Origin: Escherichia phage PBECO4
Sequence record: KC295538
Strand: one strand, 5' to 3'
Length of the DNA: 64,000 bases
Below the pieces are notes generated by a model that saw nothing but the letters and a program-made list of their open reading frames with translations, had not been told where the DNA came from and searched no databases. A program made the translations under genes and the position numbers. Positions 699 to 34,680 of this stretch are shown piece by piece (positions within the stretch are counted from its first letter, which is position 1; every line of letters starts with the position of its first letter).

Positions 699-699
699 G

Positions 700-20889: not shown

Positions 20890-20985
20890 TTTTAAATCCT
20901 CGTTTAATTGAGCGGGAGAACCATTCCCCCGCCTCGATATAAAGTATTATACGCTTTTAAACTTAGTTTGCAAGTACTTTTTAAA
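20890..20985 (-). promoter_or_regulatory. sigma70-like promoter + 5' UTR hairpin
   Basis: gcgggagaaccattcccccgc hairpin. Confidence 0.55.
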
Positions 20986-21597
20986 TTAATATGCGATTGA
21001 TTCTACTACGTCATCAATAACATTGAATTGATACTCGTTACCCTCGATCAGTGCCGTGATGTTCTCAGTAGTGAATTGATCCTCATATGCATTCTCTAAA
21101 TCACGGTACAACTTGCGGGACAATTCACGAATAGTATCAGTGAGTAGTTCCTCAAGCTCATTAACTAACGTTTCTTGTTTTGCGGTTAAATCAGTGTAAG
21201 CCGATTCAATGTACCCGCTTACAGTATTCTCATGCGAGTAGTGGGAGTGCGAACGCTTTACACTCATCGCCAAATCATCTTCATTCAGCAAGTGACGGAT
21301 TGAGCGATACTTAGTTAATGCTCTTACCTTGCGTAAAAACTTCACTGCGTCAACGTGGTCAGTACTGATTGATGCACCGTCACCCTGGGACCAAAAACCA
21401 CTGAATTGTATTTCAGCTTCATTAATGCCATATTCCGGTAGTACTGTTTCTTTATAGTATTCAATTTCACTTTCAGAAAAATAATTGTCGTTTGAGTTTT
21501 TTTCACGTTCCCGAACCAGTTCGATAGCTGACGTTTGTTGTTCTGCGTTCAATTCAGAAAAATCCATAACGAAAGTAGTAGTAGTGATAGTTTTCAT
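20986..21597 (-). CDS. hypothetical acidic protein (203 aa)
   Basis: Track ORF. Confidence 0.6.
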   Translation of the reverse strand: MKTITTTTFVMDFSELNAEQQTSAIELVREREKNSNDNYFSESEIEYYKETVLPEYGINEAEIQFSGFWSQGDGASISTDHVDAVKFLRKVRALTKYRSIRHLLNEDDLAMSVKRSHSHYSHENTVSGYIESAYTDLTAKQETLVNELEELLTDTIRELSRKLYRDLENAYEDQFTTENITALIEGNEYQFNVIDDVVESIAY

Positions 21598-21819
21598 TTT
21601 GTAACCCTCATTCAGTAGTTGATGTAAGTATTATACGCTTTTAAAAACATTTGTCAAACTATTTTATCAGGGGAGTTTTTCGTGTGCCTTACTCCTGGGC
21701 TACTTAACGGGAAGTTACTTATTTCGTTCCCCGTCCTGATGTAAAACATTATACGCCTTTAAACATAGTTTGCAAGTACTTTTTAAAAATAGTTTTCAGT
21801 ACTGAATATTAAAAAAGTA

Positions 21820-21848
21820 TTGACAGCATTATCAAGTACTGGCATAAT
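21820..21848 (+). promoter_or_regulatory. + strand sigma70-like promoter (TTGACA-N17-CATAAT) driving a short noncoding transcript
   Basis: ttgaca 21820..21825, cataat 21843..21848; downstream ctaacccaccgggtgc box then atagatacactcccgcaccctatgggct box. Confidence 0.45.
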
Positions 21849-22022
21849 ATACCACATGACAACAGCTAACCCACCGGGTGCACAATTGTAACTATACTAA
21901 ACTAATTTTTCTATAGATACACTCCCGCACCCTATGGGCTACGGCTTATCTGCCAATGAATACATTATGCCAGTACTGACAAAATAAGTCAATACCGGCA
22001 ATTGTAAAGATTTGTAAACTAC

Positions 22023-22253
22023 TTATACTGCAATCGCGTCCAGGCTATAATAATAATAAGTGCCGTATTGGTGTACTTTATTACCTTTTATTTCAGTACT
22101 GAATGAATCCGAACGATTTGCATATGATGTTAATTTAAAGTACTTTGATTTGCTGATACGTTGCCATACACCACAGATCCGCTGTAAGTAAGTAGTTTTA
22201 TTCGTGGTAGTATCTTTTACGGTTTTAACTTCAGTCATATACATATTAGTCAT
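22023..22253 (-). CDS. hypothetical protein
   Basis: Track ORF. Confidence 0.55.
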   Translation of the reverse strand: MTNMYMTEVKTVKDTTTNKTTYLQRICGVWQRISKSKYFKLTSYANRSDSFSTEIKGNKVHQYGTYYYYSLDAIAV

Positions 22254-22340
22254 TTTTATTACTCCAGGTTATAGGCGGGAAGAGTTCCCGCTCTCGATGT
22301 AAAACATTATACGCCTTTAAACATAGTTTGCAAGTACTTT
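22254..22340 (-). promoter_or_regulatory. sigma70-like promoter + 5' UTR hairpin
   Basis: gcgggaagagttcccgc hairpin. Confidence 0.55.
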
Positions 22341-22607
22341 TTATTCAAGTACTGCAATCTTTTTAGTACGGTACACGGTCACGCGGTTGCCCTTTCGGTC
22401 GAGCTTTATTTCTACCACTCGACGCGATACACTATCGGGACTTTTTAAGGCCGCTAACCAGTACTGTAATGATCTGGCTGTACTACGCTTTACAATGGCC
22501 CAACGTTTACCACGTTCCGATTGTACGCCCATATCTTTAAACGTTGCCCCGTCCTGGCGTGCGGCGATCCGAGCTTGTTCACGCGTCGCAAAATACTTAA
22601 TATTCAT
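22341..22607 (-). CDS. hypothetical protein, paralog of 9448..9843
   Basis: Trimmed to ATG 22607 (MNIKYFATREQARIAARQDGATFKDMG..). Confidence 0.6.
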   Translation of the reverse strand: MNIKYFATREQARIAARQDGATFKDMGVQSERGKRWAIVKRSTARSLQYWLAALKSPDSVSRRVVEIKLDRKGNRVTVYRTKKIAVLE

Positions 22608-22697
22608 GCTGTTGCCCTTATCGTTGGTGTATGAATAAAACACTATTATAAAGTACTATCGCAAAAAATGATAGTACTTTAAATAAATTCTATTCTA

Positions 22698-22937
22698 TTA
22701 CATTCCAACCATCGCCGCACGGATCGCAGTAGTGCTATACTTAAAGCCGTCCGGTGTTTTATCTTGTCCAGTCTGTTCTAAAAATAGCATCATATGACGG
22801 GCCGCATCATTACGATTAGTATTGGCGGCAATAAAGTCCTGGGCCAACCGATACAATCCCTCATCGTTATTAATCCAAAGGCTTACATTCCAATGAGTTT
22901 TGTTTTTGTGACCTAAGAACATTTTTGATTTAGCCAT
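22698..22937 (-). CDS. hypothetical protein, paralog of 20650..20889
   Basis: Trimmed to ATG 22937 (MAKSKMFLGHKNKTHWN..). Confidence 0.6.
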   Translation of the reverse strand: MAKSKMFLGHKNKTHWNVSLWINNDEGLYRLAQDFIAANTNRNDAARHMMLFLEQTGQDKTPDGFKYSTTAIRAAMVGM

Positions 22938-23019
22938 TTTTTTAATCCTCTTATATAGTGGGGAACTATTCCCCACCTGATGTAAAGTATTATACGCTTT
23001 TAAATTTAGTTTGCAAGTA
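22938..23019 (-). promoter_or_regulatory. sigma70-like promoter + 5' UTR hairpin
   Basis: gtggggaactattccccac hairpin. Confidence 0.55.
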
Positions 23020-23253
23020 CTATTTTTTCAGTACTGGTAAACCTTTGATCTCACCTGGCTGTACTTCCTCAAAGGCGACCGCCATCATACGGCTATCATC
23101 TTCCTTACATTCTTCCATCGCATCACAAAAATGATTAATAACGTCCGGTGCAACGTCAACCACATCAAACAAGCCAACCTCAGTGCAACGGCTTAAAGCG
23201 TTTAATAGGTCAGTCAGTGCAACGGATTGAGAAACAGTTAAAATAGTACTCAT
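23020..23253 (-). CDS. hypothetical acidic protein
   Basis: Track ORF. Confidence 0.55.
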   Translation of the reverse strand: MSTILTVSQSVALTDLLNALSRCTEVGLFDVVDVAPDVINHFCDAMEECKEDDSRMMAVAFEEVQPGEIKGLPVLKK

Positions 23254-23347
23254 ACAATTAATCTCTTAATTATAGTGGGGAACTATTCCCCACCTGATGT
23301 AAAACATTATACGCTTTTAAACTTAGTTTGCAAGTACTTTATTAAAC
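23254..23347 (-). promoter_or_regulatory. sigma70-like promoter + 5' UTR hairpin
   Basis: Same hairpin as 22938..23019. Confidence 0.55.
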
Positions 23348-23710
23348 TTATTTGTAAATTTTGCCACTGTCAGCCCATACCAGGAAACGAGGCATATTAT
23401 CCCATGCATCTTGTTTTAAATTTAAACCGTGCAATTCCTCAGTAGTTGCCATCCCTGGTACTGGCTTACTACACACCGCGAAATTTTCGCCCATATACTG
23501 ATAAACCATCGTCAAATCATTTGAGATCATCTTATGGATCATCGCATCAAGCATCACGGTAGCGGCGTATTGTTCACGCTTAAGCGGCAGCATTTTAATC
23601 AGTTCGCGGTATGCGTCAATGTGAGTTTTAACCGTTGCCGCCGGAAGATCTTTCATCTCGTCGCGGAAGTTAACCAGGTTAGCAATAATTTTGGTGATTT
23701 GAGTTGCCAT
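23348..23710 (-). CDS. hypothetical protein
   Basis: Track ORF trimmed to ATG 23710 (MATQITKIIA..). Confidence 0.6.
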   Translation of the reverse strand: MATQITKIIANLVNFRDEMKDLPAATVKTHIDAYRELIKMLPLKREQYAATVMLDAMIHKMISNDLTMVYQYMGENFAVCSKPVPGMATTEELHGLNLKQDAWDNMPRFLVWADSGKIYK

Positions 23711-23800
23711 CGTTTTAATCTCTCTTAAAGTGTAGCGGGAACACTTCCCGCTCTCGATGTAAAACATTATACGCTTTTATCAGTACGGTGCAAGTACTTT
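23711..23800 (-). promoter_or_regulatory. sigma70-like promoter + 5' UTR hairpin (last unit before noncoding hub)
   Basis: gcgggaacacttcccgc hairpin. Confidence 0.55.
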
Positions 23801-23825
23801 CTACAAATACTTTTAAAATAGTTTT

Positions 23826-23917
23826 CTTTCTATATAGGAGTACTATTATTCAGTACTGAATCAATCCAGGGGAACTATCTTTCTATATAGGAGTACTATT
23901 ATTCAGTACTGAATCAA
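23826..23917. repeat. 39-bp direct repeat x2
   Basis: ctttctatataggagtactattattcagtactgaatcaa at 23826..23864 and 23879..23917. Confidence 0.7.
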
Positions 23918-24069
23918 CCAAATCACTACTACACCCCATAAAACGGCCTCAGACGCATTCTAACGCATTAATACACCTAAGCTATACATTTGCACCACTC
24001 CCAACAATCCAGGGCGTTACGGGCCGTTTAAACGCGTTAAATTATTTTCAATTATTTTGTTTTTAGGTA

Positions 24070-24097
24070 TTGACTTGATCCTGAAAAAGCGTATAAT
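24070..24097 (+). promoter_or_regulatory. + strand promoter (TTGACT-N16-TATAAT)
   Basis: ttgact 24070..24075, tataat 24092..24097; downstream gggtgcgg ... ccgcaccc long-range inverted repeat. Confidence 0.45.
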
Positions 24098-24284
24098 TAC
24101 TACATAGACGCGAGAAAGCGGAAACCCCAGAGGGTGCGGAATTACGCCCAAAATTCAAGATATAAAAAAAGGATACACTCCCGCACCCTAGCAGGTAAAC
24201 GCACTTTCTCAGTACTGAATTATAGTACCATAGTCCGGCCCAGGATGGCAAGCAAATTAATTAAAACTTTTTTCATCCAGGGTA

Positions 24285-24312
24285 TTGCTTTATTTTTCCA
24301 GTACTGTATAAT
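24285..24312 (+). promoter_or_regulatory. + strand promoter with TTGCTTTA box upstream of TATAAT (resembles a T4 MotA-box middle promoter)
   Basis: tattgctttat 24283..24293, tataat 24307..24312; downstream cccaccgggtgc box. Confidence 0.35.
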
Positions 24313-24533
24313 AGTTCCATCAAGTCGAGAAAGACTCAAGCCCACCGGGTGCATAGTTACGCCCAAAATTCAGTACTGAAAAAATTTTTAAAAATATCCG
24401 TCCAGGCCGTTGACATTGCCCCCAGTTTATAAGATAATGATTCCAGATTCAGAAAAATCTAACTCCAGATACTGCGGGGAAACTATCCCCACGCGGTAGG
24501 GGAACTATTGGAAAAAACAAAATAAAATTTTGA

Positions 24534-24680
24534 TTTAGCCGTCTATACTTCCAGACGTGTAACCATCTAGCCGTTTAGCCGTCCAAACGTCTAGCCATCC
24601 AGCCATCCAGAAATCTAGCCGTTTAGCCGTCTAGATGGATAGCCATCTTTACTTCCAGACTTCTGGAGGGCTAGACATAT
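24534..24680. repeat. iteron-like cluster of ~8 short direct repeats (TAGCCGT/TAGCCAT) flanked by tacttccagac repeats
   Basis: ctagccgtttagccgtc, ctagccatccagccatccag, ctagccgtttagccgtctag; tacttccagac at ~24546 and ~24651. Confidence 0.6.
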
Positions 24681-25705
24681 CTACGTCCAAAATCCACCCA
24701 GGGTAACTACGCCCAAAATCCGTCAGTACTATACCATAGATCTATCTTTTGAAAGGGAGTATTCAGTACTGCCACAATAGCCCTCACTATGTTACCCTAG
24801 GAGGATGAAGACTATCATGTAGTACTGAATACTGTTAGAGGGAATCCACCAGCTTGTGCTGGTGGCATAATGCTTTAGATTAAAATCAGTACTGACACCA
24901 TTCTGTTAATATCAGTACTGTTATTACGATTTTCATATGAGGTTCAAAAAGATGTACCACCACAGGAGGAACTATCTTTTCTGTACTGTCTCACGACAGG
25001 AGGTAGAGTAAATGAATTGTTCGCAGCAACTCATCACCCTATGTAGAACATTATACAGTACTGAATCATAATGTCAATAGCTTTCTTTCATTATTCAGTA
25101 CTGATATTCTTGAGAACTACCCGACTACAAACATCATTATATCCCACAAATCATAAACGTCCCAACGTAAATTTCAACTTTCGAAGATCCAACTTTTATT
25201 TCATAGGTACTCCAAAATTTTTAGGATCGAGATTTAGGATGGAGTACTAACCAACTTTTTGCTGGAGCCTCAAGGGGTAATGGAATTTTACCCCGAAGGG
25301 TAAAGGGGTAATTGAAATTAAGGTGAAAGTAATAATTCAGTACTAATCATTGCGTGATTACTTTTGATTACATTTGATGTAATTTGAAAAATGGAAAAGG
25401 AGCTTGGAAACTACAAAGTACGGCAGACTTCCTCTGCCTACTTAGTGGCATATCAGTACTGAATCCTTCCCGTGCATTCTTGAGCATTCTTGTCTATACT
25501 AATCAGTACTGAATCATATATAATCATTCTGTGATTCTACGGTGCTCATATAAATGTTTATATATGATTACTTATGACTACCTATGATTACGGGGTTTAG
25601 CCTGGGGAGAATCCTAGTGATCGCATTTGTCCAGGCTGAATTTTAACAATTCGCCTGTACATAAAGGTTGTTCACTAGGAGCTTCCCCTGTCTACTTGTG
25701 TTTAA

Positions 25706-25897
25706 TTACTTCCTATATATAAGCATTAAGATATAGTAGTACTGATTATACTGTACATTCTCTTTAATATTATAAGGGTCTATAGCAATCTCGGTACATC
25801 TGTTAAATGCATATCTATTAAATGCCAGTGGAATTATAGATCTAATCCATACTTGTTCATTTTCTTTTAGTTTACTTATATAGAAGTTTTTATACAT
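25706..25897 (-). CDS. small protein, family B tandem paralog
   Basis: ~60 aa; N-term M.KEFY-like, C-term hydrophobic ..LIYRK; one of ~17 tandem copies. Confidence 0.55.
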   Translation of the reverse strand: MYKNFYISKLKENEQVWIRSIIPLAFNRYAFNRCTEIAIDPYNIKENVQYNQYYYILMLIYRK

Positions 25898-25912
25898 AGT
25901 ATTCTCTATTAA

Positions 25913-26095
25913 TTAATATGATAGTACTAGTGTTAGTACTGAGCACAATTGTTCTTTGTAGTTCTTAGGGTATATAGAATCTTTTATGCACTCATTGAAG
26001 TGCCATAGGTATAATCTTGGGTCGCATTCTTTATATATTCTTACGGGGACGAATGTTAGTTTTCGTATATAGAATTCTTTATGTTCTTTATTCAT
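25913..26095 (-). CDS. small protein, family B paralog
   Basis: MNKEHKEFYIRKL.. Confidence 0.55.
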   Translation of the reverse strand: MNKEHKEFYIRKLTFVPVRIYKECDPRLYLWHFNECIKDSIYPKNYKEQLCSVLTLVLSY

Positions 26096-26096
26096 A

Positions 26097-26285
26097 TTAG
26101 TACCTGAATATAAGTAGGATTATGTTATAGTACTGGTTAGTACTGCAATGATTCTCTATACATCGATTAACAGTTATGGAATAGCTATATCTGGCGTAAG
26201 CATTATCCAGCGGGATTTTACATTGAGCACTTAGAGAAAGTACAGTAGGTAGTGTATTCAAATAGAAGTCTTTGTAATTATTCAT
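26097..26285 (-). CDS. small protein, family B paralog
   Basis: MNNYKDFYLNTL.. ..LLIFRY. Confidence 0.55.
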   Translation of the reverse strand: MNNYKDFYLNTLPTVLSLSAQCKIPLDNAYARYSYSITVNRCIENHCSTNQYYNIILLIFRY

Positions 26286-26487
26286 ACAGGAATAGTATAC
26301 CTATGATACCTGAGTACAGGTTAGTACTGTTACCATCTTCGTTTGCGTTTAAAGTCATTTGAATACAATTATTGTAGCATACTCTGCCGAAAAATGTATT
26401 AGTACTTAAAGGTGGAGTAGTCCTTAGAAACATTTGTTCTGAGGGGCTTATGTATTTGGAGTAGAATTCTTTATGTTCTTTATTCAT
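26278..26487 (-). CDS. small protein, family B paralog
   Basis: MNKEHKEFYSKYISPSEQ.. ; near-duplicate of 29118..29327. Confidence 0.55.
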   Translation of the reverse strand: MNKEHKEFYSKYISPSEQMFLRTTPPLSTNTFFGRVCYNNCIQMTLNANEDGNSTNLYSGIIGILFLYE

Positions 26488-26492
26488 ATTAG

Positions 26493-26678
26493 TTAGTGTC
26501 TGTATATAAGTAATAGTAAGAATACGTACTGCACATCTTCATCTTTAGTATTGAGTACTGTACGTATTGCGTCATTAAACAAGAATATAGTACTTGGGTC
26601 ATGAAAATTTAAAGGGGTTCTGGGTACGGCATGTTTGTAGTTCCCTTTAACAAATTGTGTGTAGTATTCTCTATGCAT
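26493..26678 (-). CDS. small protein, family B paralog
   Basis: MHREYYTQF.. ..LLLIYRH. Confidence 0.55.
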   Translation of the reverse strand: MHREYYTQFVKGNYKHAVPRTPLNFHDPSTIFLFNDAIRTVLNTKDEDVQYVFLLLLIYRH

Positions 26679-26679
26679 A

Positions 26680-26865
26680 TTAGTACCTATATATTAGGGC
26701 GAGAATGTAGTACAATTCATATGGAATGTAATTTGGGGTGATCGCACACTGTGTATGGTAAATGAATTGTTCGGTATTTTTCTTATCCTTGATATCTATT
26801 GGGATTTGTGGTATAAGCATTTTGGAGTTTAGATCGAGATGGCTTAAGTAGAATTCTTTATGCAT
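26680..26865 (-). CDS. small protein, family B paralog
   Basis: MHKEFYLSHL.. ..LALIYRY. Confidence 0.55.
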   Translation of the reverse strand: MHKEFYLSHLDLNSKMLIPQIPIDIKDKKNTEQFIYHTQCAITPNYIPYELYYILALIYRY

Positions 26866-26874
26866 ATTGTTCTC

Positions 26875-27063
26875 TTAGAATACGAAAGCTAGGTACAGGG
26901 TATGATACAGTACTCGATGATAGCTGTCAAAATCTAGTATACATGCTTTAGTGCACATAGTAAAGTACACTTTATCGTTTTGTGCATTGATACCGCGAGG
27001 TTTATCTAATAGATTAGTTCTGAGGTACATTGGGAAATATTTTGTGTAGTATTCTTTATGCAT
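26875..27063 (-). CDS. small protein, family B paralog
   Basis: Trimmed to MHKEYYTKYF.. Confidence 0.5.
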   Translation of the reverse strand: MHKEYYTKYFPMYLRTNLLDKPRGINAQNDKVYFTMCTKACILDFDSYHRVLYHTLYLAFVF

Positions 27064-27064
27064 A

Positions 27065-27247
27065 TTAGTACCTGAATATAAGTAGGATAGTGTTATATAG
27101 CTGGTCATAACTACTACTATTTTCTATACTTCGTTCTATGCAGTTATTGAATCCCAGTACTGCCAAATCGTTATCCAGGGGGACTTTGTATCTGGTGTAG
27201 TGTTCAAAAATGCTGGGGAGAAATTGTGTGTAGTATTCTTTGTGCAT
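27065..27247 (-). CDS. small protein, family B paralog
   Basis: MHKEYYTQFL.. ..LLIFRY. Confidence 0.55.
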   Translation of the reverse strand: MHKEYYTQFLPSIFEHYTRYKVPLDNDLAVLGFNNCIERSIENSSSYDQLYNTILLIFRY

Positions 27248-27248
27248 A

Positions 27249-27434
27249 TTAGTACTTATATATTAGTAAAAGGATGTGATACAGTACTCGATTATAGTCT
27301 TCAATATATATCGAGGATTTAGTGCACTGAATGAAGTAGTCTTTTTCGTAGTTTTTTTCTATACCCAATGCAACGTTTGGTACAAGGTGTTGGAGATACA
27401 TTGGGAGTTTCTCTATGTAGTATTCTTTATACAT
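27249..27434 (-). CDS. small protein, family B paralog
   Basis: MYKEYYIEKL.. ..LLIYKY. Confidence 0.55.
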   Translation of the reverse strand: MYKEYYIEKLPMYLQHLVPNVALGIEKNYEKDYFIQCTKSSIYIEDYNRVLYHILLLIYKY

Positions 27435-27443
27435 ATATTATCC

Positions 27444-27641
27444 TTAGTACTGGAACGCAAGGTACAGGGTGTGGTACAGTTGTACTTGATAATTGTTTTC
27501 ATTAGCTTCTTCATTAAGTACTTGTTCAGTACATGTACGGAAGTAATCAGCTTCATATATACAGTCAATACCGCGAGGTTCATCTTCTAATAGATTTCCT
27601 TGTAGAAACTTTGGTAGTTCTTTTATGTAGAATTCTTTATA
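27444..27641 (-). CDS. small protein, family B paralog
   Basis: Trimmed to MYKEFYIKELPKF.. Confidence 0.5.
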   Translation of the reverse strand, partial: YKEFYIKELPKFLQGNLLEDEPRGIDCIYEADYFRTCTEQVLNEEANENNYQVQLYHTLYLAFQY

Positions 27642-28308
27642 CATAGTTTGTAATATACGTAATGAGGTGATGCATTTTCTTATTAGTACTGATAATTTCC
27701 TGTACATGTTTTGTCAGATTGTACGCGTTTTTATAGAGTGCTGGATTATCGATTACAGTACTGTACATGAATAGTTCTTCCTCGGATAATTCTTTGCCTT
27801 GTAATTCTTTGAGGAATTGTAGTACTGTATCAGTTTCTTCTGTACGTTGTGCTTGCCAGAAGTGCATATTCTCGTGTACTTTTTCTGCATCAGTAGAGTA
27901 TATGCCACCCATTTGGAATTGTGCTGTATTGACATCGTGGGAGGTGTTACAATTCCCGAAGAAGTATGTATTCCCGAAGTATAGCATTAAAGTGCACGGG
28001 GTATTATCCAACTGCATATTGATGATGAAGGATGCGTTCTTTAGTACCTTTGTGCTCGTATTAGTACTCAATACTTTTAAATCAGTATTATAGATATTCA
28101 TATAATGAACAGCTATATTATTTTTCTTCATGTACAATTCAAGGTTCTTTGATACGTTAACTCCATTTGTACTGGATTTTTCCTTTTTATTTCGTTTCTT
28201 TAGTACATTCGGGTGATACGTATATGCAGATGTAACTGATTCTGCCTGAATACTATTGAGGTACTTAAAGTGCTTAAGGTATTGTTTGCTGTGTGCATTA
28301 AGTTTCAT
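27637..28308 (-). CDS. hypothetical protein (223 aa) embedded in family B array
   Basis: Track ORF; overlaps next start; no family motif. Confidence 0.55.
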   Translation of the reverse strand: MKLNAHSKQYLKHFKYLNSIQAESVTSAYTYHPNVLKKRNKKEKSSTNGVNVSKNLELYMKKNNIAVHYMNIYNTDLKVLSTNTSTKVLKNASFIINMQLDNTPCTLMLYFGNTYFFGNCNTSHDVNTAQFQMGGIYSTDAEKVHENMHFWQAQRTEETDTVLQFLKELQGKELSEEELFMYSTVIDNPALYKNAYNLTKHVQEIISTNKKMHHLITYITNYV

Positions 28309-28325
28309 TTGGTTTCCTTTATATA

Positions 28326-28502
28326 GATGCCAGGGCGAGGATTTCCCTGTAGGGATTATCTTGTGTTAGTACAGCATAAATGCAGCTATTGAGATTAATA
28401 TTTTTAGTACTTTTTGTTCCTAGTTTGTAGTACTTCACGAAGGTGTCGTACATGAAACGGTCTTTTATGGTTATACGTTCTCTATAGAATTGTTGCATAG
28501 TA
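28326..28502 (-). CDS. short family B-like paralog (58 aa)
   Basis: Own translation MQQFYRERITIKDRFMYDTF.. Confidence 0.35.
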
Positions 28503-28506
28503 TTCC

Positions 28507-28689
28507 TTAAATAGCGATTAGTTTCATTACTTCTCTGTATGTGTACTTTTCGTTTTGTGCATCTCTTGTGACGACATATAGGAAGGTGTGTTTATCTTTT
28601 TTGTTCCCGCAATTGTAGAAAATATTGAACTTATTGAAGTTGAATCTTTCGGCGTGTTGTAGTTTAGTTAAATAGAATTCTATGTTCAT
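28507..28689 (-). CDS. small protein, family B paralog
   Basis: MNIEFYLTKL.. Confidence 0.5.
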   Translation of the reverse strand: MNIEFYLTKLQHAERFNFNKFNIFYNCGNKKDKHTFLYVVTRDAQNEKYTYREVMKLIAI

Positions 28690-28697
28690 TTTCTTCC

Positions 28698-28883
28698 TTA
28701 CATTTCAATAAGTTTCAGTACTGCTCGGTACGTGTACTTAGTTGTCAGTGCTTCTTTAATAGAAATACAGAAGTAATGTTGTTTGTCTCTTATACTGCCG
28801 CGTTTGTAGTACCACACATGGGAGTTGTGACTGTACTTGTCTCTGTCGGATAGTTGTTGGTAGTAGTAGCTTATATGATTCAT
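28698..28883 (-). CDS. small protein, family B paralog
   Basis: MNHISYYYQQL.. ; paralog of 28507..28689 (..TKYTYR.V.KLI..). Confidence 0.5.
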   Translation of the reverse strand: MNHISYYYQQLSDRDKYSHNSHVWYYKRGSIRDKQHYFCISIKEALTTKYTYRAVLKLIEM

Positions 28884-28930
28884 TGTAATTAGCCTTACTA
28901 TGTTAAAGTACTCGGTCCCTGGTGTACCTT

Positions 28931-29125
28931 TTAGAACTTAAAGATGAGGTTCAGGATAGAGCGGTACTTAGTTGCAGGGAACGTATGTTCTATTGCATAA
29001 CGTGTCACCATCCTGAAATCGTAATTATAATACAGATTATCCTTTCTCATAGGTGGTGCTAAAGAGAATGATAGCTGTTCTTGTTTGGGTAGTTTACTAC
29101 AATAGAAATCTTTATGATTATTCAT
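28931..29125 (-). CDS. small protein, family B paralog
   Basis: MNNHKDFYCSKL.. Confidence 0.5.
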   Translation of the reverse strand: MNNHKDFYCSKLPKQEQLSFSLAPPMRKDNLYYNYDFRMVTRYAIEHTFPATKYRSILNLIFKF

Positions 29126-29327
29126 AGAAATATATTAGTCCTATTAAACCTGAGTACATAATATTTTTGTTATTACATTCGATTGCTTCTATAGTACTAC
29201 GTATACAATTATTAAAGCAATCTCTGGCGTGTGGTGTATCTATACTTAAAGGTGATACACTCCTTAGAAACAATTGTTCTTCGTTGCTAAGGTATTTGGT
29301 GTAGAATTCTTTATGTTCAGTATTCAT
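29118..29327 (-). CDS. small protein, family B paralog
   Basis: MNTEHKEFYTKYLSNEEQ.. Confidence 0.55.
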   Translation of the reverse strand: MNTEHKEFYTKYLSNEEQLFLRSVSPLSIDTPHARDCFNNCIRSTIEAIECNNKNIMYSGLIGLIYFYE

Positions 29328-29328
29328 A

Positions 29329-29532
29329 TTAGTACTCGATTAAAAGGGCAAGGATATAATAGTATTGCATACTTTCTGCCCCTTGTAAAGCATTTCTTAT
29401 GATATTACTCCTGTACGAGTTCAGGAGTTTAGGACAACGTTTGTAGTGTATAAAAGTATTTTGTGTATACAGTAGGCTTTCTCGTAGACCTTTTGTTGGT
29501 AGTGCATCGATGTAGTACTGTTCAATGTTCAT
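29329..29532 (-). CDS. small protein, family B paralog
   Basis: MNIEQYYIDAL.. Confidence 0.5.
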   Translation of the reverse strand: MNIEQYYIDALPTKGLRESLLYTQNTFIHYKRCPKLLNSYRSNIIRNALQGAESMQYYYILALLIEY

Positions 29533-29756
29533 ATAGATAGCAGTACTAAGATTTTTGATAATTGTTTATTGCTATCCCCGCAGATGTTGCTGTGTAAAAT
29601 ACTCACAATGAGGGTATCAATTGCATTGTTCATCATAAGGGTGCATCCTGGACTATTATAATTTTTTAGCTCAATTAGCCACGAACTATCCGCGAGAAAT
29701 TCCCCGTACTCTAGTTCATTTAGAGTATTGAGGTAGTACTTAAGAGTATTTGTCAT
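29529..29756 (-). CDS. small protein, family B paralog (first gene of array)
   Basis: MTNTLKYYLNTL..; TTGACA-N17-TACTAT promoter upstream on minus strand. Confidence 0.5.
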   Translation of the reverse strand: MTNTLKYYLNTLNELEYGEFLADSSWLIELKNYNSPGCTLMMNNAIDTLIVSILHSNICGDSNKQLSKILVLLSI

Positions 29757-29858
29757 GTGTAGTTCTCCTTATATTCCTTCTATAGTACACCAGTACTGAA
29801 AGGATGTCAAGGGTTTTCTTTATGGGGTAAATATGATATAATGAATAAGGAGGGAAAT
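29757..29858. promoter_or_regulatory. divergent promoter region between family B array (minus) and RCC1-like array (plus)
   Basis: Minus: ttgacatcctttcagtactggtgtactat; plus: gatataatg + aaggaggg SD before ATG 29859. Confidence 0.5.
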
Positions 29859-31061
29859 ATGTTACCTTTTGGAAGAATGGTTAAGTACGCAAATATTGCA
29901 CCAGGTCCAGAACCTGTAGAGTTCTCAGATGTTTTACAACAACATTATACAAACTGTATGTATCTACATAACCCAACTAATACTTTATATGGTTATGGTA
30001 GTAATAACATGTATCAATTTGGTCTTGGGAATTCAGCAGCAGTTTCGTCATTTACAGTACTTGCAAGGAACTGTGCAGCCTTTTGGCTTGGTGTTCAAGG
30101 TTCGTTGATGATTGATTTGGATAATAAAATATACTACACTGGGTCTGTGGCTGCATTTTCTGATTATGGAGATGCAACACCTGTTAATGGTTATTTGACA
30201 ACATGGACTGATGTTACTGTTGCATTTAATAAAATAGGTGTTATGGCTAATATGATCAAGAGTGTATATATAGGTGAAAGTACTAGAATATTATTAACCG
30301 ATGGTAGAGTAATTGCGTGTGGAAGAAATACCAATGGTGAATGTGGCTCTGGTAATAAAAATTCCATCCCTACACTCACAGTTATGACTAATATGGGTGA
30401 AGTTACACATATGGCATGTTCATTACAAGGAACGCACTATATCAAATCAAATAAAGATGCATGGTTTTGTGGTAAGGATAACTTTGGTGAAAGTGGATGT
30501 GGTGGTAGTTCTGTTGTATATTTGAACAAATTCGTGATTAGTAATGTAGAACATATTAGTACTACATACGATGTTACTTGGTGGTTTACTACTGGTGGGT
30601 CTGTATATTATAGCGGGGCTAACAGTACTGGACAAGCGGGTAATGGTACGACTACATCGGTAAATCAGCTAACACCAATTAGGAACACATCGGTCACGGT
30701 TGATGTAAGTAAGTACAGTACTTTTATTTGTCCAAGTAATATGGGAAATGCATCAATTGGTGCACCTATGGCACAATACGCACCATATGTTAGAAGTAGT
30801 GGTGCTAACTCATATGGTCAAGAAGGTAATGGAACTAATACATTAGTTAGAACTTGGAATATTTTTAATCTTAGTGCAATAAGTGGTGGTTATGAAAATG
30901 TTCTTATGGCATCTAAAGATTGGAGCAGAACCATAATAATTACTAAAGATTATAAATTATATGCATGTGGTGGCTGGAATGGAAATGGTGGTAGATTGCC
31001 AGATGGCACTTATAGTATTACTACACTAACATTAATGCCAACGCAGTTATGGCAACAATAG
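29859..31061 (+). CDS. RCC1-like repeat beta-propeller protein, paralog 1
   Basis: Starts MLPFGRMVKYANIAPGP after AAGGAGGG SD; repeated G.N..GQ.G-type motifs (YQFGLGN, TGQAGNGTT, YGQEGNGTN). Confidence 0.7.
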   Translation: MLPFGRMVKYANIAPGPEPVEFSDVLQQHYTNCMYLHNPTNTLYGYGSNNMYQFGLGNSAAVSSFTVLARNCAAFWLGVQGSLMIDLDNKIYYTGSVAAFSDYGDATPVNGYLTTWTDVTVAFNKIGVMANMIKSVYIGESTRILLTDGRVIACGRNTNGECGSGNKNSIPTLTVMTNMGEVTHMACSLQGTHYIKSNKDAWFCGKDNFGESGCGGSSVVYLNKFVISNVEHISTTYDVTWWFTTGGSVYYSGANSTGQAGNGTTTSVNQLTPIRNTSVTVDVSKYSTFICPSNMGNASIGAPMAQYAPYVRSSGANSYGQEGNGTNTLVRTWNIFNLSAISGGYENVLMASKDWSRTIIITKDYKLYACGGWNGNGGRLPDGTYSITTLTLMPTQLWQQ

Positions 31062-31069
31062 GAGGGAAT

Positions 31070-32179
31070 ATGTTACCTTTTGGAAGAATAATTAGGTATG
31101 GAAATATTGTCCCTGGTCCTAAAAAAATAATTAAAGTTGGTGCTTCTACACAAGGTCAATTCTTATTGACTGATTCACATGATTTATATTACATAGGTAG
31201 AAATCAAGGTGGTGAATCTGGAAATGGTAATACCAACACGGTGTCTTCGTGGACATTAGTAAGTGCAGATGTTTCTAATTTTTTCGTGGGTGATCGTACA
31301 CTTGTTATTATTAAAAATGATAATACTATATGGACATCAGGTCAAACGTACTGGTTCTCATCTTCTACAACTACTTCTTACAGTACTGTATTAGTTGAAA
31401 GGACTAGTTGGTTTACCAATGCTATACCAGTCAGTGAAATTGCTAATATTGTATGCACAAATGGTTTAATATTTGTACTTAGCACTAATTCAGTACTCTA
31501 TGGTGCAGGAGATAATGGATATCGTGGTTCTTTGGGTATTGGTTCATCATCAATTTACACATTAACTCAATGTGCTACGAACGTTCGTAAAGTAATGACC
31601 AATGCGAATGATAGTATGTATCTTACATTAGATAATAAGCTATATAGTTCTGGATGGAATAGTAGTGGGCAGCATGGTACGGGGAACCAAACACAAATTA
31701 ACACTTGGGGATTGCGTAGTTCTGGTGTAATCGATGCAGCCATTGGTGGTAATGCATTAAATTACTATAATGGTACATCATATTTCGTATGTGGTCAAAC
31801 TCCAAACTTTCTTAGTTCAGGTACGACTACATTCCGTGCAGTTCCTTTAAGTACTTTGCCTAATAGTTCTCCGTTGTTTATGACGAATTCACCTGCCTTA
31901 AATACTGCTACACAAATGGTAATTACTAGTACATATCAGAAGGGTGTTGGGGCGAACCGTGGTTTGGGATTAAACAATTCTCAAACTGGTGCTATATATA
32001 GTGCTACCAATTTACAATTACCCGTTGAAGTTAGTGAGATTAGGGATGTTCTTTTTAGTGATGGTTTGACATCGATATTAACCAAAAATGGAGACGTGTA
32101 TAGTACTGGATCGTATTACGCCATTCCAGGTGCAATCGAGGATGTTGCAGTCTTTACTAAAATTGATTTACCAAAATAA
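31070..32179 (+). CDS. RCC1-like repeat beta-propeller protein, paralog 2
   Basis: MLPFGRIIRYGNIVPGP; SGQHGTGN, RGSLGIG motifs; coupled to paralog 1 with no cassette. Confidence 0.7.
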   Translation: MLPFGRIIRYGNIVPGPKKIIKVGASTQGQFLLTDSHDLYYIGRNQGGESGNGNTNTVSSWTLVSADVSNFFVGDRTLVIIKNDNTIWTSGQTYWFSSSTTTSYSTVLVERTSWFTNAIPVSEIANIVCTNGLIFVLSTNSVLYGAGDNGYRGSLGIGSSSIYTLTQCATNVRKVMTNANDSMYLTLDNKLYSSGWNSSGQHGTGNQTQINTWGLRSSGVIDAAIGGNALNYYNGTSYFVCGQTPNFLSSGTTTFRAVPLSTLPNSSPLFMTNSPALNTATQMVITSTYQKGVGANRGLGLNNSQTGAIYSATNLQLPVEVSEIRDVLFSDGLTSILTKNGDVYSTGSYYAIPGAIEDVAVFTKIDLPK

Positions 32180-32185
32180 CATAAT

Positions 32186-32210
32186 GCCAGTACTCTGTAC
32201 TGGCTTTCTT
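32186..32210 (+). terminator. cassette hairpin + T-run (terminator) preceding TATAAC/SD of next paralog
   Basis: gccagtactctgtactggc followed by tttctt. Confidence 0.55.
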
Positions 32211-32249
32211 ATTTGTATTAAATATAGTATAACAAATAAAGGAGGGAAT

Positions 32250-33389
32250 ATGTTACCTTTTGCAAGAATGGTTAAGTACGGGAATATCGCACCTGAACTG
32301 ATTCTACCTAAAAACAGGTTACAATGTTCTGCTGATGCCAAATTTTATTTACACACAAATGGTAATCTATATTGGTTTGGTTCTTCAGCATATGGACAAA
32401 GTGGTAATGGTTCATTGGACTCTTCAACTGAATGGACTCTTGTCAACTCAAATGTTACACGATATTGGGGTGGGGTACAAGGAACAATTGCTATAAAGAA
32501 AGATGGTACTATTTGGTACACTGGTAGACGTACTGTTATTCCAATACTATCTTCAAACACTAACGGCGTTTGGGTTGATATAACACAGAACTTTACTGAT
32601 TTCGGTGTCAGTGCAGATGATATTGATAGTGTTGTGATATCTTCGTGTATGCGTGTATTTTTAAAAAATGGAAAGTGGTTCTACTGTGGTGCTGGTACTG
32701 GTGGTGTTTTTGGGAATGGATCAACTTCAAGCGTTTCACGATTCACCTATAGTACAATAGAAAATGTTATCAGTGCTGGTTGTGCAATATATAGTACTGG
32801 ATTAGTACTAAATGATGGTTCATATTGGTATGCAGGTAGAACGTTTGTATCAGGAACGACGACACAAAACTTGCTCACATTTACACAAGATACTTCGATT
32901 AGTAATGCAATTAAAGCAGTCAATACAAATGAAACTTCTTATATATTTCTTAATGATGGTAATGTTAAAGTTGCATCTATTAACGACTATGGACAAGCAG
33001 GTACAGGAAATAGGTCAGTAGCCCCAATGAGTACATTAATTCCAAATTTATCATTCCAAGGAGAAGTGGAGTTGGTGGGTGAGCTTGGGACAAACCTTAC
33101 CGGACCATCCTGTATAATTAATAATAATAATAAGTTATTTTCATGTGGCCTTAATTCAAATGGTCAATGTGGTATTGGTACAACTGATATGTATATAACA
33201 TCATTCGCTGAAATGGATCTTACTGCATTAGAAGGTAGTAATCTTAGTAGTTTTTGTAAGAGCTATTCTTATACGATGTTAGTTGACGAATATAATAATT
33301 TATACACATGTGGTGTACCCAATCTTACTGGAATGTCTTCAACTACTGTACCAACAAGGGTTCCTGATTCACTTCTACCGTGGAAATAA
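32250..33389 (+). CDS. RCC1-like repeat beta-propeller protein, paralog 3
   Basis: MLPFARMVKYGNIAPE; YGQSGNGS, NDYGQAGTGN, NSNGQCGIGT. Confidence 0.7.
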   Translation: MLPFARMVKYGNIAPELILPKNRLQCSADAKFYLHTNGNLYWFGSSAYGQSGNGSLDSSTEWTLVNSNVTRYWGGVQGTIAIKKDGTIWYTGRRTVIPILSSNTNGVWVDITQNFTDFGVSADDIDSVVISSCMRVFLKNGKWFYCGAGTGGVFGNGSTSSVSRFTYSTIENVISAGCAIYSTGLVLNDGSYWYAGRTFVSGTTTQNLLTFTQDTSISNAIKAVNTNETSYIFLNDGNVKVASINDYGQAGTGNRSVAPMSTLIPNLSFQGEVELVGELGTNLTGPSCIINNNNKLFSCGLNSNGQCGIGTTDMYITSFAEMDLTALEGSNLSSFCKSYSYTMLVDEYNNLYTCGVPNLTGMSSTTVPTRVPDSLLPWK

Positions 33390-33395
33390 TATAAT

Positions 33396-33420
33396 GCCAG
33401 TACACTGTACTGGCTTTCTT
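33396..33420 (+). terminator. cassette hairpin + T-run
   Basis: gccagtacactgtactggc tttctt. Confidence 0.55.
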
Positions 33421-33460
33421 ATTTGTATTAAATATAGTATAATGAATAAAGGAGGGAAAT

Positions 33461-34609
33461 ATGTTACCTTTTGCAAGAATGATGAATTATGGGAATATTG
33501 CCCCTGGTAAGGATAGGCGTTTTAAAATATATTCAAGTGATTCTATGTATCTTCATGATACTTATACTAATAAGTTGTATGCATCTTCTGCGACGAATTG
33601 GGGTACTGGAACAGGTGTAGCATCGAGTAAATTTATTCTTTGTGCGGAGAATGTTAAACGAGTTCTATTGGAAGATAACAGTAGTAGTTGTCAATTGTAT
33701 GAAGAGAAAGGTACTGGAAAAGTTTTTATCACTGGTAACACGAAGGCATTCACTGGTGTAACTGATACAAAAACTTTGTGGACGGACTGTACTACGTGGA
33801 TAACATCAGGTGGTATTAATGTTTCTGATATAAAATACATGAGTAGTTTTAATGATATGAAGGTGAATTTGATAACAAACGATGGTACGTTGTATTGTTG
33901 TGGAGTTAACAATAACTCGAACCTATCATCATTTGGTGATGGTACAAACATTAATTCTTTTAACACATTCAAAAGGGTAGATACTATAACTTCGGTCAAA
34001 AAGGCAGTTGGTAACATATACCTAAAAGAAGATAATACTTTATGGGGTTGTGGTTTTAACTATTACTATCAGTTAGGTACAGGTAATCAAACTTCTATTA
34101 CTGGGGTGACGATGATTTCTTCAGATGTTATAGATTTTGATGTAAGTTATCAGAGTACATTTTTTATTAAATCGGATAATAATTTGTACGCTTGTGGTAA
34201 ACAGTTCGGTGCACAATACGGGAACGAATTTGGCACAGGTGGTACTTCTTCATCTACCGATATACAATACAAAACTCCGACATTATTGAGTTCAGGAGTT
34301 TATACTCTATATACTTGTGTTAGTAACATGGCATCACATATAGTTAAAGGTGATGAAGTTCTATACGCATCTGGGTCGAATGGATTTGGTCAATTAGGTG
34401 TTGGTAATAATATTAATCAGTACTCATATACTCCTTCGTATACTTCGTTTAATAGTTCGTGTAATTTGGTACGCACTCCATCTGGTTCACTTATACTTAC
34501 GGACACTGAGAAATTATATTATTGTGGGTATGCTATGGTAGTAATGGGGGGAATTGCTGGACAAAACATTCTTAGTTATACAGAAGTTGATATGTCATTT
34601 ATACAATGA
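33461..34609 (+). CDS. RCC1-like repeat beta-propeller protein, paralog 4
   Basis: MLPFARMMNYGNIAPGK; YYQLGTGNQ, NGFGQLGVGNN. Confidence 0.7.
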   Translation: MLPFARMMNYGNIAPGKDRRFKIYSSDSMYLHDTYTNKLYASSATNWGTGTGVASSKFILCAENVKRVLLEDNSSSCQLYEEKGTGKVFITGNTKAFTGVTDTKTLWTDCTTWITSGGINVSDIKYMSSFNDMKVNLITNDGTLYCCGVNNNSNLSSFGDGTNINSFNTFKRVDTITSVKKAVGNIYLKEDNTLWGCGFNYYYQLGTGNQTSITGVTMISSDVIDFDVSYQSTFFIKSDNNLYACGKQFGAQYGNEFGTGGTSSSTDIQYKTPTLLSSGVYTLYTCVSNMASHIVKGDEVLYASGSNGFGQLGVGNNINQYSYTPSYTSFNSSCNLVRTPSGSLILTDTEKLYYCGYAMVVMGGIAGQNILSYTEVDMSFIQ

Positions 34610-34615
34610 TTTAAT

Positions 34616-34640
34616 GCCAGTACACTGTACTGGCTTTCTT
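34616..34640 (+). terminator. cassette hairpin + T-run
   Basis: gccagtacactgtactggc tttctt. Confidence 0.55.
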
Positions 34641-34680
34641 ATTTGTATTAAATATAGTATAATGAATAAAGGAGGAATTT

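Follow-up and report, generated by a model that had tools for sequence, protein, structure and literature searches.

A lineage-restricted operon of 17 small paralogous genes beside the terminal repeat of an Asteriusvirus jumbo phage

The analysed window is a 64,000-nt stretch of the genome of Escherichia phage PBECO4 (KC295538), an Asteriusvirus (121Q/PBECO4-type E. coli jumbo phage) that is 99.6% identical to vB_EcoM_CRJP21. Between positions 25706 and 29756, its minus strand carries 17 adjoining small genes, referred to here as family B, and one gene for a protein of 223 aa (Table 1). A prior sequence-only reading had described a tandem array of about 17 small minus-strand genes, and the list of open reading frames (ORFs) contains exactly 17. 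Sense-strand ORFs of at least 58 aa numbered 19 at the array, against 0.48 +/- 0.67 (maximum 3) in 500 dinucleotide-preserving shuffles. The size range of that reading, 58-77 aa, had to be corrected to 59-75 aa, because two N-terminally extended ORFs with upstream in-frame ATGs (B07 and B10) have family-type starts at internal ATGs.

Table 1. Features of the family-B operon, listed by window position (one strand for all)
Feature	Position	Strand	Remarks
Promoter, sigma70-type	29782..29810	-	TTGACA, 17 nt, TACTAT; 10/12 consensus matches
Shine-Dalgarno AAGGAG	29765..29770	-	8 nt upstream of B17 start codon; strong
B17	29529..29756	-	75 aa; first gene; most divergent, probable family member; hhalign to B16 type 47%, E 2e-4, 62 columns
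B16	29329..29532	-	67 aa; divergent subfamily; 4-nt overlap with B17
B15	29118..29327	-	69 aa; type G, universal
B14	28931..29125	-	64 aa; type F, universal; 8-nt overlap with B15
47-nt spacer	28884..28930	-	sole long gap in array; between B14 and B13
B13	28698..28883	-	61 aa; subfamily Bb; C-terminus ..YTYRAVLKLIEM
B12	28507..28689	-	60 aa; subfamily Bb
B11	28319..28498	-	59 aa; subfamily Bb
Embedded 223-aa gene	27637..28308	-	PHROG 29152; E 8.6e-156 to phrog_29152
B10	27444..27644	-	66 aa; true start is internal ATG; 8-nt overlap with 223-aa gene
B09	27249..27434	-	61 aa
B08	27065..27247	-	60 aa; chosen for structure prediction
B07	26875..27063	-	62 aa; true start is internal ATG
B06	26680..26865	-	61 aa
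B05	26493..26678	-	61 aa; type B, universal
32-nt direct repeat, upstream copy	26462..26493	-	perfect; ACTAATATGAATAAAGAACATAAAGAATTCTA = junction + first 9 codons
B04	26278..26487	-	69 aa; two-gene cassette with B03, missing in 121Q and G17
B03	26097..26285	-	62 aa; 8-nt overlap with B04
32-nt direct repeat, downstream copy	26070..26101	-	start of B02
B02	25913..26095	-	60 aa
B01	25706..25897	-	63 aa; last gene; type A, universal
Weak terminator-like hairpin	25438-25422 (feature 25422..25442)	-	abuts terminal-repeat inner boundary, about 25442

Apart from the 47-nt spacer, the 18 genes are linked by overlaps or by gaps of no more than 15 nt, and the terminal codons of one gene (AGG TAC TAA t ATG, or TAAGGA) often form the ribosome-binding site for the next. 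The array is one polycistronic, translationally coupled operon, transcribed towards the terminal repeat. The pattern CTTGACA-N16-18-TAYWAT has a single match in the entire window, which is the operon promoter. Its hexamers and their spacing are identical in all eight phages compared, including the most divergent one, A4, and the Shine-Dalgarno sequence before B17 is likewise kept in all eight. The region as a whole shows no enrichment of promoter-like sites (24 versus 29.6 expected), so the argument for the operon promoter depends on this conservation.

The 223-aa gene occupies the same position in all eight phages and in one divergent metagenomic array, and homologues of its product are confined to this phage group. 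Its lack of relationship to family B, already stated in the sequence-only reading, was borne out (hhalign probability 1.8%, E 0.028). Despite having no detectable family-B homology, it is a conserved and integral member of the operon. An HExxH motif in the protein is not conserved among the homologues, and its AF2 model was unusable (pLDDT 38).

The profile of PHROG 11711, a group without annotated function, was matched over the full length by 12 of the 17 array proteins (best E 5e-28). B11-B13, B16 and B17 escape this profile and were tied to family B by profile-profile comparison only. An all-against-all phmmer comparison of the array members grouped 12 of them into one connected cluster and 3 into another. 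Full-length hhalign matches linked subfamilies Ba and Bb (probability 94%, E 1.3e-7) and Ba and the B16 type (probability 87%, E 3.9e-6), while reversed-sequence controls for this comparison gave E values of 0.007 or higher. The profile matches and profile-profile comparisons place 16 members demonstrably in one family; B17 is a probable member, with a moderate link to the B16 type. In the multiple alignment, the paralogues are mostly 15-40% identical. Two genes (26278-26487 and 29118-29327) had been called near-duplicates, which is an overstatement, as they are merely the closest pair, with 54% identity in protein and 74% in DNA.

A homologue search yielded 51 matches, every one from Asteriusvirus-type phages. 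An exhaustive HMM search of 1.84e9 protein representatives returned 32 matches, all of 59-69 aa apart from one TPR-like false positive, and detected no family-B protein outside Asteriusvirus-type sequences. As judged from these searches, the family is lineage-restricted, occurring in one phage genus only.

The N-terminal M(N/H/Y)KE(F/Y)Y motif was confirmed, and among 157 unique family sequences Tyr6 is invariant and the hydrophobic core conserved. The hydrophobic C-terminus noted in the sequence-only reading is also real, but not as a membrane segment. With a maximal 19-residue hydropathy of 1.18 or less, the proteins are, by sequence criteria, soluble, and they are rich in Tyr (11%, with TAC as the preferred codon). 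Gly, Ala and Val together make up 8.6% of residues, compared with 19.8% in neighbouring genes. Net charge spans -7 to +5, and pI 4.4-9.6. The AF2 model of B08 has four helices (pLDDT 89.3), so that a family-B protein is predicted to be a compact four-helix domain, and the N-terminal residues in the model belong to the folded domain and not to a detachable tag. The predicted fold has no known structural relatives, and no similarity of family B to characterised anti-defence, defence, antitoxin, anti-sigma or other host-targeting proteins was detected. The hypervariable parts are helix 2, the long loop and the outward-facing sides of helices 3 and 4. A conserved core beneath a variable surface is also compatible with relaxed constraint in the absence of diversifying selection, and overall dN/dS is below 1.

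In the eight phages, 15-23 family-B copies are found per genome, representing at least 31 types, 7 of which are universal. Each type occurs once per genome, indicating old diversification and not recent amplification. The order of cassettes is kept across genomes that are about 85% identical in DNA. Phages 121Q and G17 are without the 392-nt cassette of B04 and B03 and have a single copy of the 32-nt repeat exactly there. Many other indels are near the size of cassette units (190, 198, 205 and 578 nt), and a clean junction repeat was found at one indel only. The genome comparison shows that the array changes as entire cassettes are gained or lost in register, at least once by recombination between conserved gene junctions. 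G17, BF17 and A4 have an extra V-type cassette where the array has the 47-nt spacer (167 nt extra in G17), and the spacer was probably left behind by the loss of a cassette. Salmonella and E. coli phages have almost the same repertoires, so no match between repertoire and host is visible.

On its right, the G17 record ends with the sequence of its own position 20,668, which maps to window position 25442 and corresponds to the inner boundary of a 20,668-bp direct terminal repeat. This agrees with reported terminal redundancies of about 20 kb in G17 (PMC6563267) and 20,668 bp in Sharanji (PMC11895373). The operon lies 264 bp inside the unique region, counted from the boundary of this 20.7-kb repeat. 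The neighbouring repeat holds 27 sigma70-type promoter cassettes, not one of which falls within the array. It also encodes a zinc-finger protein of the DksA/TraR type and a weakly kinase-like protein. In PA5oct, a related jumbo phage that depends on host RNA polymerase, terminal-repeat genes are early genes (PMC7318152). From promoter type and position only, we infer that the operon would be expressed early. The earlier suggestion of an accessory locus gains support from the restriction to one genus, the presence or absence of cassettes, the host-type promoter and the adjacent terminal repeat.

The phAPEC6 virion contains 62 proteins, including RCC1-like proteins but no family-B protein, even though a protein of 4.66 kDa was detected (PMC7247149). 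On the basis of this list, family-B proteins are not virion proteins.

We tentatively propose that the family-B products are early, cytoplasmic and diversified binders of host proteins. Host RNA polymerase would transcribe the operon early, and the proteins would be stoichiometric cytoplasmic binders of proteins of the host or of competing phages, with a separate target, or variant of a target, for each paralogue. Such binding would most likely serve counter-defence or host takeover. The 223-aa protein may be a shared partner of the family-B proteins, or a separate effector in the same process.

Alternatively, family-B proteins could be partners dedicated to the RCC1-like beta-propellers, one or two per propeller paralogue, in the role of chaperones, adaptors, or assembly or specificity factors. 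In every Asteriusvirus record examined, the two arrays lie next to each other in divergent orientation with about 100 bp between them, both are expanded and diversified multigene families, and the RCC1-like proteins might need assembly factors because they are virion-associated in phAPEC6. However, Salmonella phage Munch, with about 15 RCC1 genes, and Yersinia phage fHe-Yen9-04, with at least 5, have RCC1 arrays but no family-B genes, and the confinement of family B to Asteriusvirus-type sequences in the exhaustive search also weighs against a partnership. The counts do not match either, with 17 small genes versus 9-10 RCC1 genes in the whole window. RCC1 genes tend to be equipped individually with a terminator hairpin and a promoter-like TAAATATAGTATAAT motif that lacks a -35 element, whereas one -35/-10 promoter serves the whole of family B. 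The propeller link raised in the sequence-only reading is weakened by these differences and by the contrast between virion and non-virion proteins, and we regard it as unlikely.

The array could also be mainly a by-product of recombination-prone junction repeats, consisting of paralogues that are dispensable and nearly neutral and that individually do little or nothing. The junction repeats could drive expansion and contraction, copy number varies from 15 to 23, an orthologue of at least 60% identity is absent from A4 for 7 of the 17 members, and dN/dS is close to 1 or higher in certain orthologue pairs. Yet all array ORFs are intact in all eight genomes, with no pseudogenes, and concatenated dN/dS is 0.49 versus BF17 and 0.28 versus A4. 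The seven universal types, the conserved order and the high-confidence predicted fold with its conserved core are further arguments against near-neutrality, as is the retention of the architecture, including the 223-aa gene, in the far more divergent metagenomic relative. The absence of within-genome duplicates of any type speaks against recent neutral amplification. This account, too, is unlikely.

T4 internal proteins carry an N-terminal capsid-targeting signal. By analogy, family-B proteins might be small internal capsid proteins ejected with the DNA, and the motif with its invariant Tyr6, common to all paralogues, might be such a signal. Their small size and diverse charge would be suitable, and in phAPEC6 the capsid encloses an inner body and a prohead protease is present (PMC7247149). 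The virion list of phAPEC6 argues against this possibility, as do the promoter, which is of the host early type and unlike the motif upstream of the virion RCC1 genes, and the placement of the N-terminus within the folded domain. We consider it very improbable. That the stretch is non-coding, with spurious ORFs produced by some repetitive DNA or RNA element, as the unusual GC skew for minus-strand genes, the repetitive junctions and the dense AGTACT sites (6.9 per kb) might suggest, is effectively refuted by the ORF excess, dN/dS below 1, ATG starts with Shine-Dalgarno sequences, the confident protein fold and an Rfam search without a match, the skew being explained by amino-acid composition and TAC preference.

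Several known systems resemble the proposed set of host-protein binders in part. The MGF100/110/360/505 families of ASFV and the poxvirus host-range families or "genomic accordions" are tandem, diverged paralogues near a genome terminus that vary between isolates by unequal recombination, and in these large eukaryotic DNA viruses the families antagonise innate immunity. Family B shares this arrangement, including variation in copy number and membership between isolates and change through unequal recombination. Unlike these families, it is non-homologous to them, encodes proteins of about 60 aa in one coupled operon with one promoter, and has each type once per genome; the innate-immunity function is not transferable. 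Anti-CRISPR and other phage anti-defence operons usually combine unrelated proteins with a helix-turn-helix repressor (Aca). Family B is similar in that its small, cytoplasmic proteins are packed behind one strong host-type promoter, are accessory and vary between related phages, but they are paralogues, the operon has no helix-turn-helix gene, and no similarity to known inhibitors is seen.

The pre-early genes of T5 and the host-takeover module of SPO1 are clusters of small genes without assigned function at or near a long terminal repeat with host-type promoters; such early clusters usually have many promoters and do not consist of paralogues. Like these and the PA5oct cluster (PMC7318152), family B consists of small genes beside a long terminal repeat with a host-type promoter. 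It differs in lying just outside the repeat, with one promoter and one family. In bacteria, orphan immunity arrays of contact-dependent inhibition and type VI secretion ("acquired interbacterial defence") comprise tandem sets of small, diversified binding proteins, every one of which should neutralise its own variant of a target. Family B is also tandem, diversified and small, but it is viral, shows no similarity in sequence or fold, and has no toxin genes nearby. Family B is an uncharacterised viral multigene family for which a counter-defence role is plausible.

Family B, the set of small minus-strand paralogues B01 to B17, is a real, expressed-looking, lineage-specific multigene family that forms a single operon bordering the terminal repeat. 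The census of the array agreed with the counts of the sequence-only reading, which had noted about 17 small minus-strand ORFs and one ORF of 223 aa; 17 and 1 were listed. The size range of 58-77 aa given there needed correction, as family-type starts yield proteins of 59-75 aa, and two ORFs (77 and 87 aa) are lengthened by upstream in-frame ATGs.

Window positions of features in and around the family-B array
Feature	Position	Strand	Remark
Family-B array	25706-29756	minus	17 small ORFs and one 223-aa ORF
B07	26875-27063	minus	family-type start
B10	27444-27644	minus	family-type start
Promoter TTGACA-17 nt-TACTAT	29810-29782	minus	upstream of B17
32-nt direct repeat, two copies	26462-26493 and 26070-26101		flanks B04+B03
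47-nt gap	28884-28930
AGTACT example	29791-29798		within family-B promoter spacer
RCC1-like paralogues, 9-10	29841-42100	plus	start of first gene probably 29859, not 29841
'Family A' array	166-3286	minus	second tandem array, ~13 paralogues of 70-90 aa
27 promoter cassettes	5293-25090	minus	~1 per small gene
TAGCCGTC imperfect tandem repeat	24536-24634		8-bp period, ~12 copies
Perfect TTGACA-16-TATAAT	25077-25050	minus	beside TAGCCGTC repeat
DksA/TraR-type C4 zinc-finger protein	12781-13038	minus	in terminal repeat; Pfam E 1.6e-10
213-aa protein	8219-8860	minus	weak protein-kinase match, below threshold

An AAGGAG Shine-Dalgarno sequence lies 8 nt before the ATG of B17, the first gene, and the promoter hexamers, their spacing and this Shine-Dalgarno sequence are identical in all eight phages compared (the window, 121Q, G17, A4, BF17, E9.1, ELP-22 and SD-15_S21). 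The genes follow each other at spacings of -8, -4, 1, 5, 8-10 or 15 nt, with a lone larger gap of 47 nt. All genes but one end in TAA, and the ribosome-binding site is often built from the last codons of the preceding gene (..AGG TAC TAA t ATG, or TAAGGA). The array contains none of the 27 promoter cassettes that recur in the neighbouring region. It is therefore best regarded as a single transcription unit whose 18 genes are translationally coupled. Searches of the operon for a helix-turn-helix (Aca-type) regulator gene, and of the array and its flanks for structured RNA with Rfam, returned nothing.

The neighbouring promoter cassettes consist of TTGCAA or TTGACA, about 17 nt (often with AGTACTG) and TATAATG, in most cases followed by a GC-rich hairpin, GGGGAGAA..TTCTCCCC, ahead of the gene; translation through them gives rise to false N-terminal extensions, for example 'MFYIERGKRF'. 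In the whole window the palindrome AGTACT is present 266 times, 12 times the expectation from base composition, and CAGTACTG occurs 56 times versus 0.79 in shuffles. Coding and non-coding DNA alike hold AGTACT sites, as do promoter spacers and the terminator hairpins of RCC1 genes, and their density peaks in the family-B array at 6.9 per kb. We found no literature on this motif.

Over 25500-30000 the sequence shares 99.6% identity with Escherichia phage vB_EcoM_CRJP21. It has matches in 34 phage records, which without exception are E. coli or Salmonella jumbo phages of the 121Q/PBECO4/G17 group (Asteriusvirus); every gene under the match is annotated there as 'hypothetical protein'. Where the array lies close to one end of a record, the query starts 20.2-22.6 kb away from it. 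At its right end the G17 record repeats, with full identity, G17 sequence up to position 20,668, a point that maps to window 25,442. A terminal redundancy of about 20 kb has been reported for G17 (PMC6563267), and the direct terminal repeat of Sharanji measures 20,668 bp (PMC11895373). This makes window 1-25,442 the counterpart of the 20,668-bp direct terminal repeat of Asteriusviruses. The unique region opens with the family-B operon, whose array starts 264 bp from the repeat boundary and which is transcribed in the direction of the repeat; transcription of the RCC1 array, a divergent neighbour encoding RCC1-like beta-propeller proteins, is directed away from it.

About 0.8 kb inside the boundary, in the ORF-poor stretch 23800-25700, lies the TAGCCGTC repeat, flanked on both strands by strong promoter-like sites. 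The cumulative GC-skew minimum, at about 24-26 kb, coincides with this region, which gave no Rfam match and could represent iterons, a replication origin or a terminus-related signal. The terminal repeat houses the 27 promoter cassettes, which are of host type, together with the zinc-finger protein and the kinase-like 213-aa protein listed in the table; both proteins would fit host-takeover functions.

All-against-all phmmer comparison connected B01-B10, B14 and B15 into a cluster of 12 ('Ba') and B11-B13 into a cluster of 3 ('Bb'); in the alignment of members, identity to the first one is 15-42%. After homologues from seven related phages had been added, profile-profile comparison (hhalign) linked Ba with Bb over 53 columns (probability 94%, E 1.3e-7) and with the type of B16 (87%, E 3.9e-6), while reversed-sequence controls gave E values of at least 0.007. 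With more homologues, B17 matched the B16 type over its full length (47%, E 2e-4), a moderate link. Taken together, the phmmer clusters and hhalign links support 16 members as demonstrably one family by these comparisons, with B17 probably the 17th. The sequence-only reading had named failure of the members to align as its refutation; they align over their full length beyond the reversed controls, B17 moderately so. Its pair of 'near-duplicates' (26278-26487 and 29118-29327) proved to be more distant, sharing 54% protein and 74% DNA identity. Twelve of the 17 members match PHROG 11711 over their full length (function not annotated; E <=0.01, best 5e-28); for the other five, no direct match to this PHROG was found and hhalign provides the link. 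A relation to 'family A', which is PHROG 4148 and carries a conserved GTNYQ motif, was dropped (hhalign probability 0.4%).

The family profile, run against 5.8 billion proteins in a word-indexed search, matched 51, all of Asteriusvirus type. Exhaustive HMM search of 1.84 billion cluster representatives gave 32 matches, all of 59-69 aa except a 242-aa TPR-like protein, which shares only a short 'KEFY..L' motif and which we treat as a false positive. No match to family B was obtained in Pfam, NCBIfam, PADLOC, PDB sequence profiles or PHROG functions. These searches mark family B, as judged by sequence, as a lineage-restricted orphan. Homology did not mark the locus as an anti-CRISPR or anti-defence operon: Pfam, PHROG functions, NCBIfam and PDB held no match to a known inhibitor. 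A TPR or alpha-solenoid repeat was rejected, as neither sequence nor fold matched repeat units significantly. The sequences are already public as hypothetical proteins, most of them in a PHROG of unassigned function. In the literature we found no description of the family, its operon, fold or cassette behaviour, and no Asteriusvirus transcriptome; the phAPEC6 paper comments only in a general way on arrays of related genes as support for genome growth through tandem duplication (PMC7247149).

Structure prediction, which the sequence-only reading had proposed as a check, gave a confident four-helix model. The AlphaFold2 model of B08, built from a 47-sequence alignment, has a pLDDT of 89.3 and a pTM of 0.72, with helices at residues 3-7, 12-17, 27-42 and 46-58. 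Foldseek found nothing in the PDB, and from predicted viral structures it retrieved nothing but the protein's own orthologue. The predicted family-B fold is confident, new and small. The hydrophobic C-terminus pointed out earlier stands as a description, without a membrane-spanning segment in any of the 17 members: in the model, the C-terminal helix is packed into the globular bundle. A membrane role as holin, spanin or tail-anchored protein was rejected on the same 17, in which the maximum 19-residue Kyte-Doolittle mean is at most 1.18.

Tyr6 does not vary in any of the 157 unique family sequences. Conservation extends to positions 5, 10, 33, 36, 37, 41, 50, 54, 56 and 57, which almost all hold hydrophobic or aromatic residues, the exceptions being Cys at 36 and Thr/Ile at 37. 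Helix 2, the loop 18-32 and the remaining positions of helices 3 and 4 are highly variable, and among the 17 members the pI ranges from 4.4 to 9.6 and the net charge from -7 to +5. A conserved core with a variable remainder corresponds to a fixed scaffold that bears a diversified surface.

The embedded 223-aa gene was correctly called unrelated to the paralogues. The idea that it is a family-B member with an insertion, or has a B-like C-terminal domain, was rejected (hhalign probability 1.8%, E 0.028). It matches PHROG 29152 and has homologues only in this phage group; no Pfam or PDB relatives were found, and its AlphaFold2 model (pLDDT 38) is too poor for fold comparison. A zinc metalloprotease reading fails because HENMH of the window becomes HDNMH, HDKMY or HNNMY in homologues. 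All eight phages have the gene at one and the same position, as does a far more divergent metagenomic array (L011), which makes it an integral part of the operon.

The array evolves by in-register gain and loss of cassettes. Family-B copy number is 15 in Salmonella phage SD-15_S21, 16 in 121Q, 17 in the window, G17 and A4, 21 in E9.1, 22 in BF17 and 23 in ELP-22. Clustering at about 60% identity yields 31 types across the eight phages, seven of them universal and each present once per genome. Gene order is a conserved frame in which cassettes are present or absent; in types, the window reads MLGFEOD|WKJCIBQPHA. The B04+B03 pair (392 nt) is absent from 121Q and G17. In the window this pair is flanked by a perfect 32-nt direct repeat, consisting of the gene junction and the first nine codons, of which 121Q and G17 keep exactly one copy. 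Because B02 and B04 are otherwise so diverged that phmmer gives no link, their identical 5' ends point to a recent recombination event there. Many of the remaining indels have lengths near those of cassette units (190, 198, 205, 578 nt). A junction repeat at every indel was rejected: a perfect repeat is seen only at B04+B03, and the other indels lie between diverged cassettes with ambiguous alignment. At the 47-nt gap, G17, BF17 and A4 carry an extra cassette, and we read the gap as a deletion scar.

Concatenated dN/dS is 0.49 versus BF17 and 0.28 versus A4, with a few pairs near 1, and all ORFs are intact in the eight genomes. Selection on the array is purifying but relaxed, and we consider it distinctly unlikely that the array consists of near-neutral products of recombination-prone repeats. 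Composition is also unusual: Tyr makes up 11% of family B versus 4.2% in neighbouring genes, Gly+Ala+Val 8.6% versus 19.8%, TAC is the preferred Tyr codon and GNN codons are few. This composition accounts for the positive GC skew of the array (+0.12 to +0.20 over 26000-30000) despite minus-strand transcription; other minus-strand genes in the window have the opposite skew.

That family-B proteins are partners of the RCC1 proteins receives equally little of our credence. The link to the propeller genes implied by the sequence-only reading holds for adjacency, which is kept within the genus. An obligatory coupling was rejected, since Munch and fHe-Yen9-04 have RCC1 arrays without family B, and functional dependence is therefore not supported. 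Upstream of several RCC1 genes there is a terminator hairpin (GCCAGTACACTGTACTGGC plus T-run), with a conserved TAAATATAGTATAATGAATAAAGGAGG leader and a TAAATATAGTATAAT motif that lacks a -35 element; this differs from the family-B promoter. In Yersinia phage fHe-Yen9-04 (L008), a different set of tandem genes of about 115 aa, annotated as membrane proteins, lies at 7926-10482 beside the RCC1 array, another small-paralogue array next to RCC1 genes in a different genus.

The virion proteome of the related phage phAPEC6 (62 proteins) includes the RCC1-like gp549, gp551 and gp003-010, and eight RCC1-like proteins are virion-associated there (PMC7247149). No small array protein was among the 62, though a protein of 4.66 kDa was detected (PMC7247149). 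This absence, indirect evidence from a related phage, speaks against a structural or internal virion role for family B, and packaging as internal proteins is highly improbable. A non-coding array has virtually no claim, as 19 sense-strand ORFs of at least 58 aa compare with 0.48 +/- 0.67 (maximum 3) in 500 dinucleotide-preserving shuffles.

Our preferred reading, held tentatively, is that the operon would be transcribed early by host RNA polymerase and that its products would act in the cytoplasm as diversified binders of host or rival-phage proteins, most likely in counter-defence or host takeover, with the 223-aa protein as a common partner or separate effector. In the related, host-RNA-polymerase-dependent phage PA5oct, terminal-repeat genes are early genes (PMC7318152). 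The explanations considered here leave a remainder to something else.

A bolder proposal, which we think rather unlikely, sees in the array a 'library' of inhibitors, modular and exchangeable, in which every 60-aa cassette would neutralise its own host defence or abortive-infection protein. The conserved gene junctions, made up of stop codon, ribosome-binding site, start codon and first 9 codons, would double as translational-coupling signals and in-register recombination sites, and co-infecting Asteriusviruses could gain, lose and swap cassettes with the operon intact. If true, phages would have, on a previously unseen fold, an equivalent of integron cassettes or of the African swine fever virus multigene families.

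Large eukaryotic viruses are known for a terminal multigene-family strategy. Here, tandem paralogues near a genome terminus vary in copy number and content, a likeness of architecture, not of homology. In its architecture the array is one more terminal multigene family of large viruses and no novel type of system.

Arrays of genes without an assigned role take up much of the genome of jumbo phages. This one is unusually clean, with 17-23 paralogues of a confidently folding 60-aa domain that has no known relative, and with a readable cassette history. If the proteins are diversified host inhibitors, as in our preferred reading, they would constitute a compact set of new small binders, possibly with new anti-defence activities, would explain in part the host range of phages proposed for E. 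coli and Salmonella therapy, and would provide a phage example of the strategy of large eukaryotic viruses. If they are dispensable, the locus still documents how junction repeats drive the expansion of jumbo-phage genomes.
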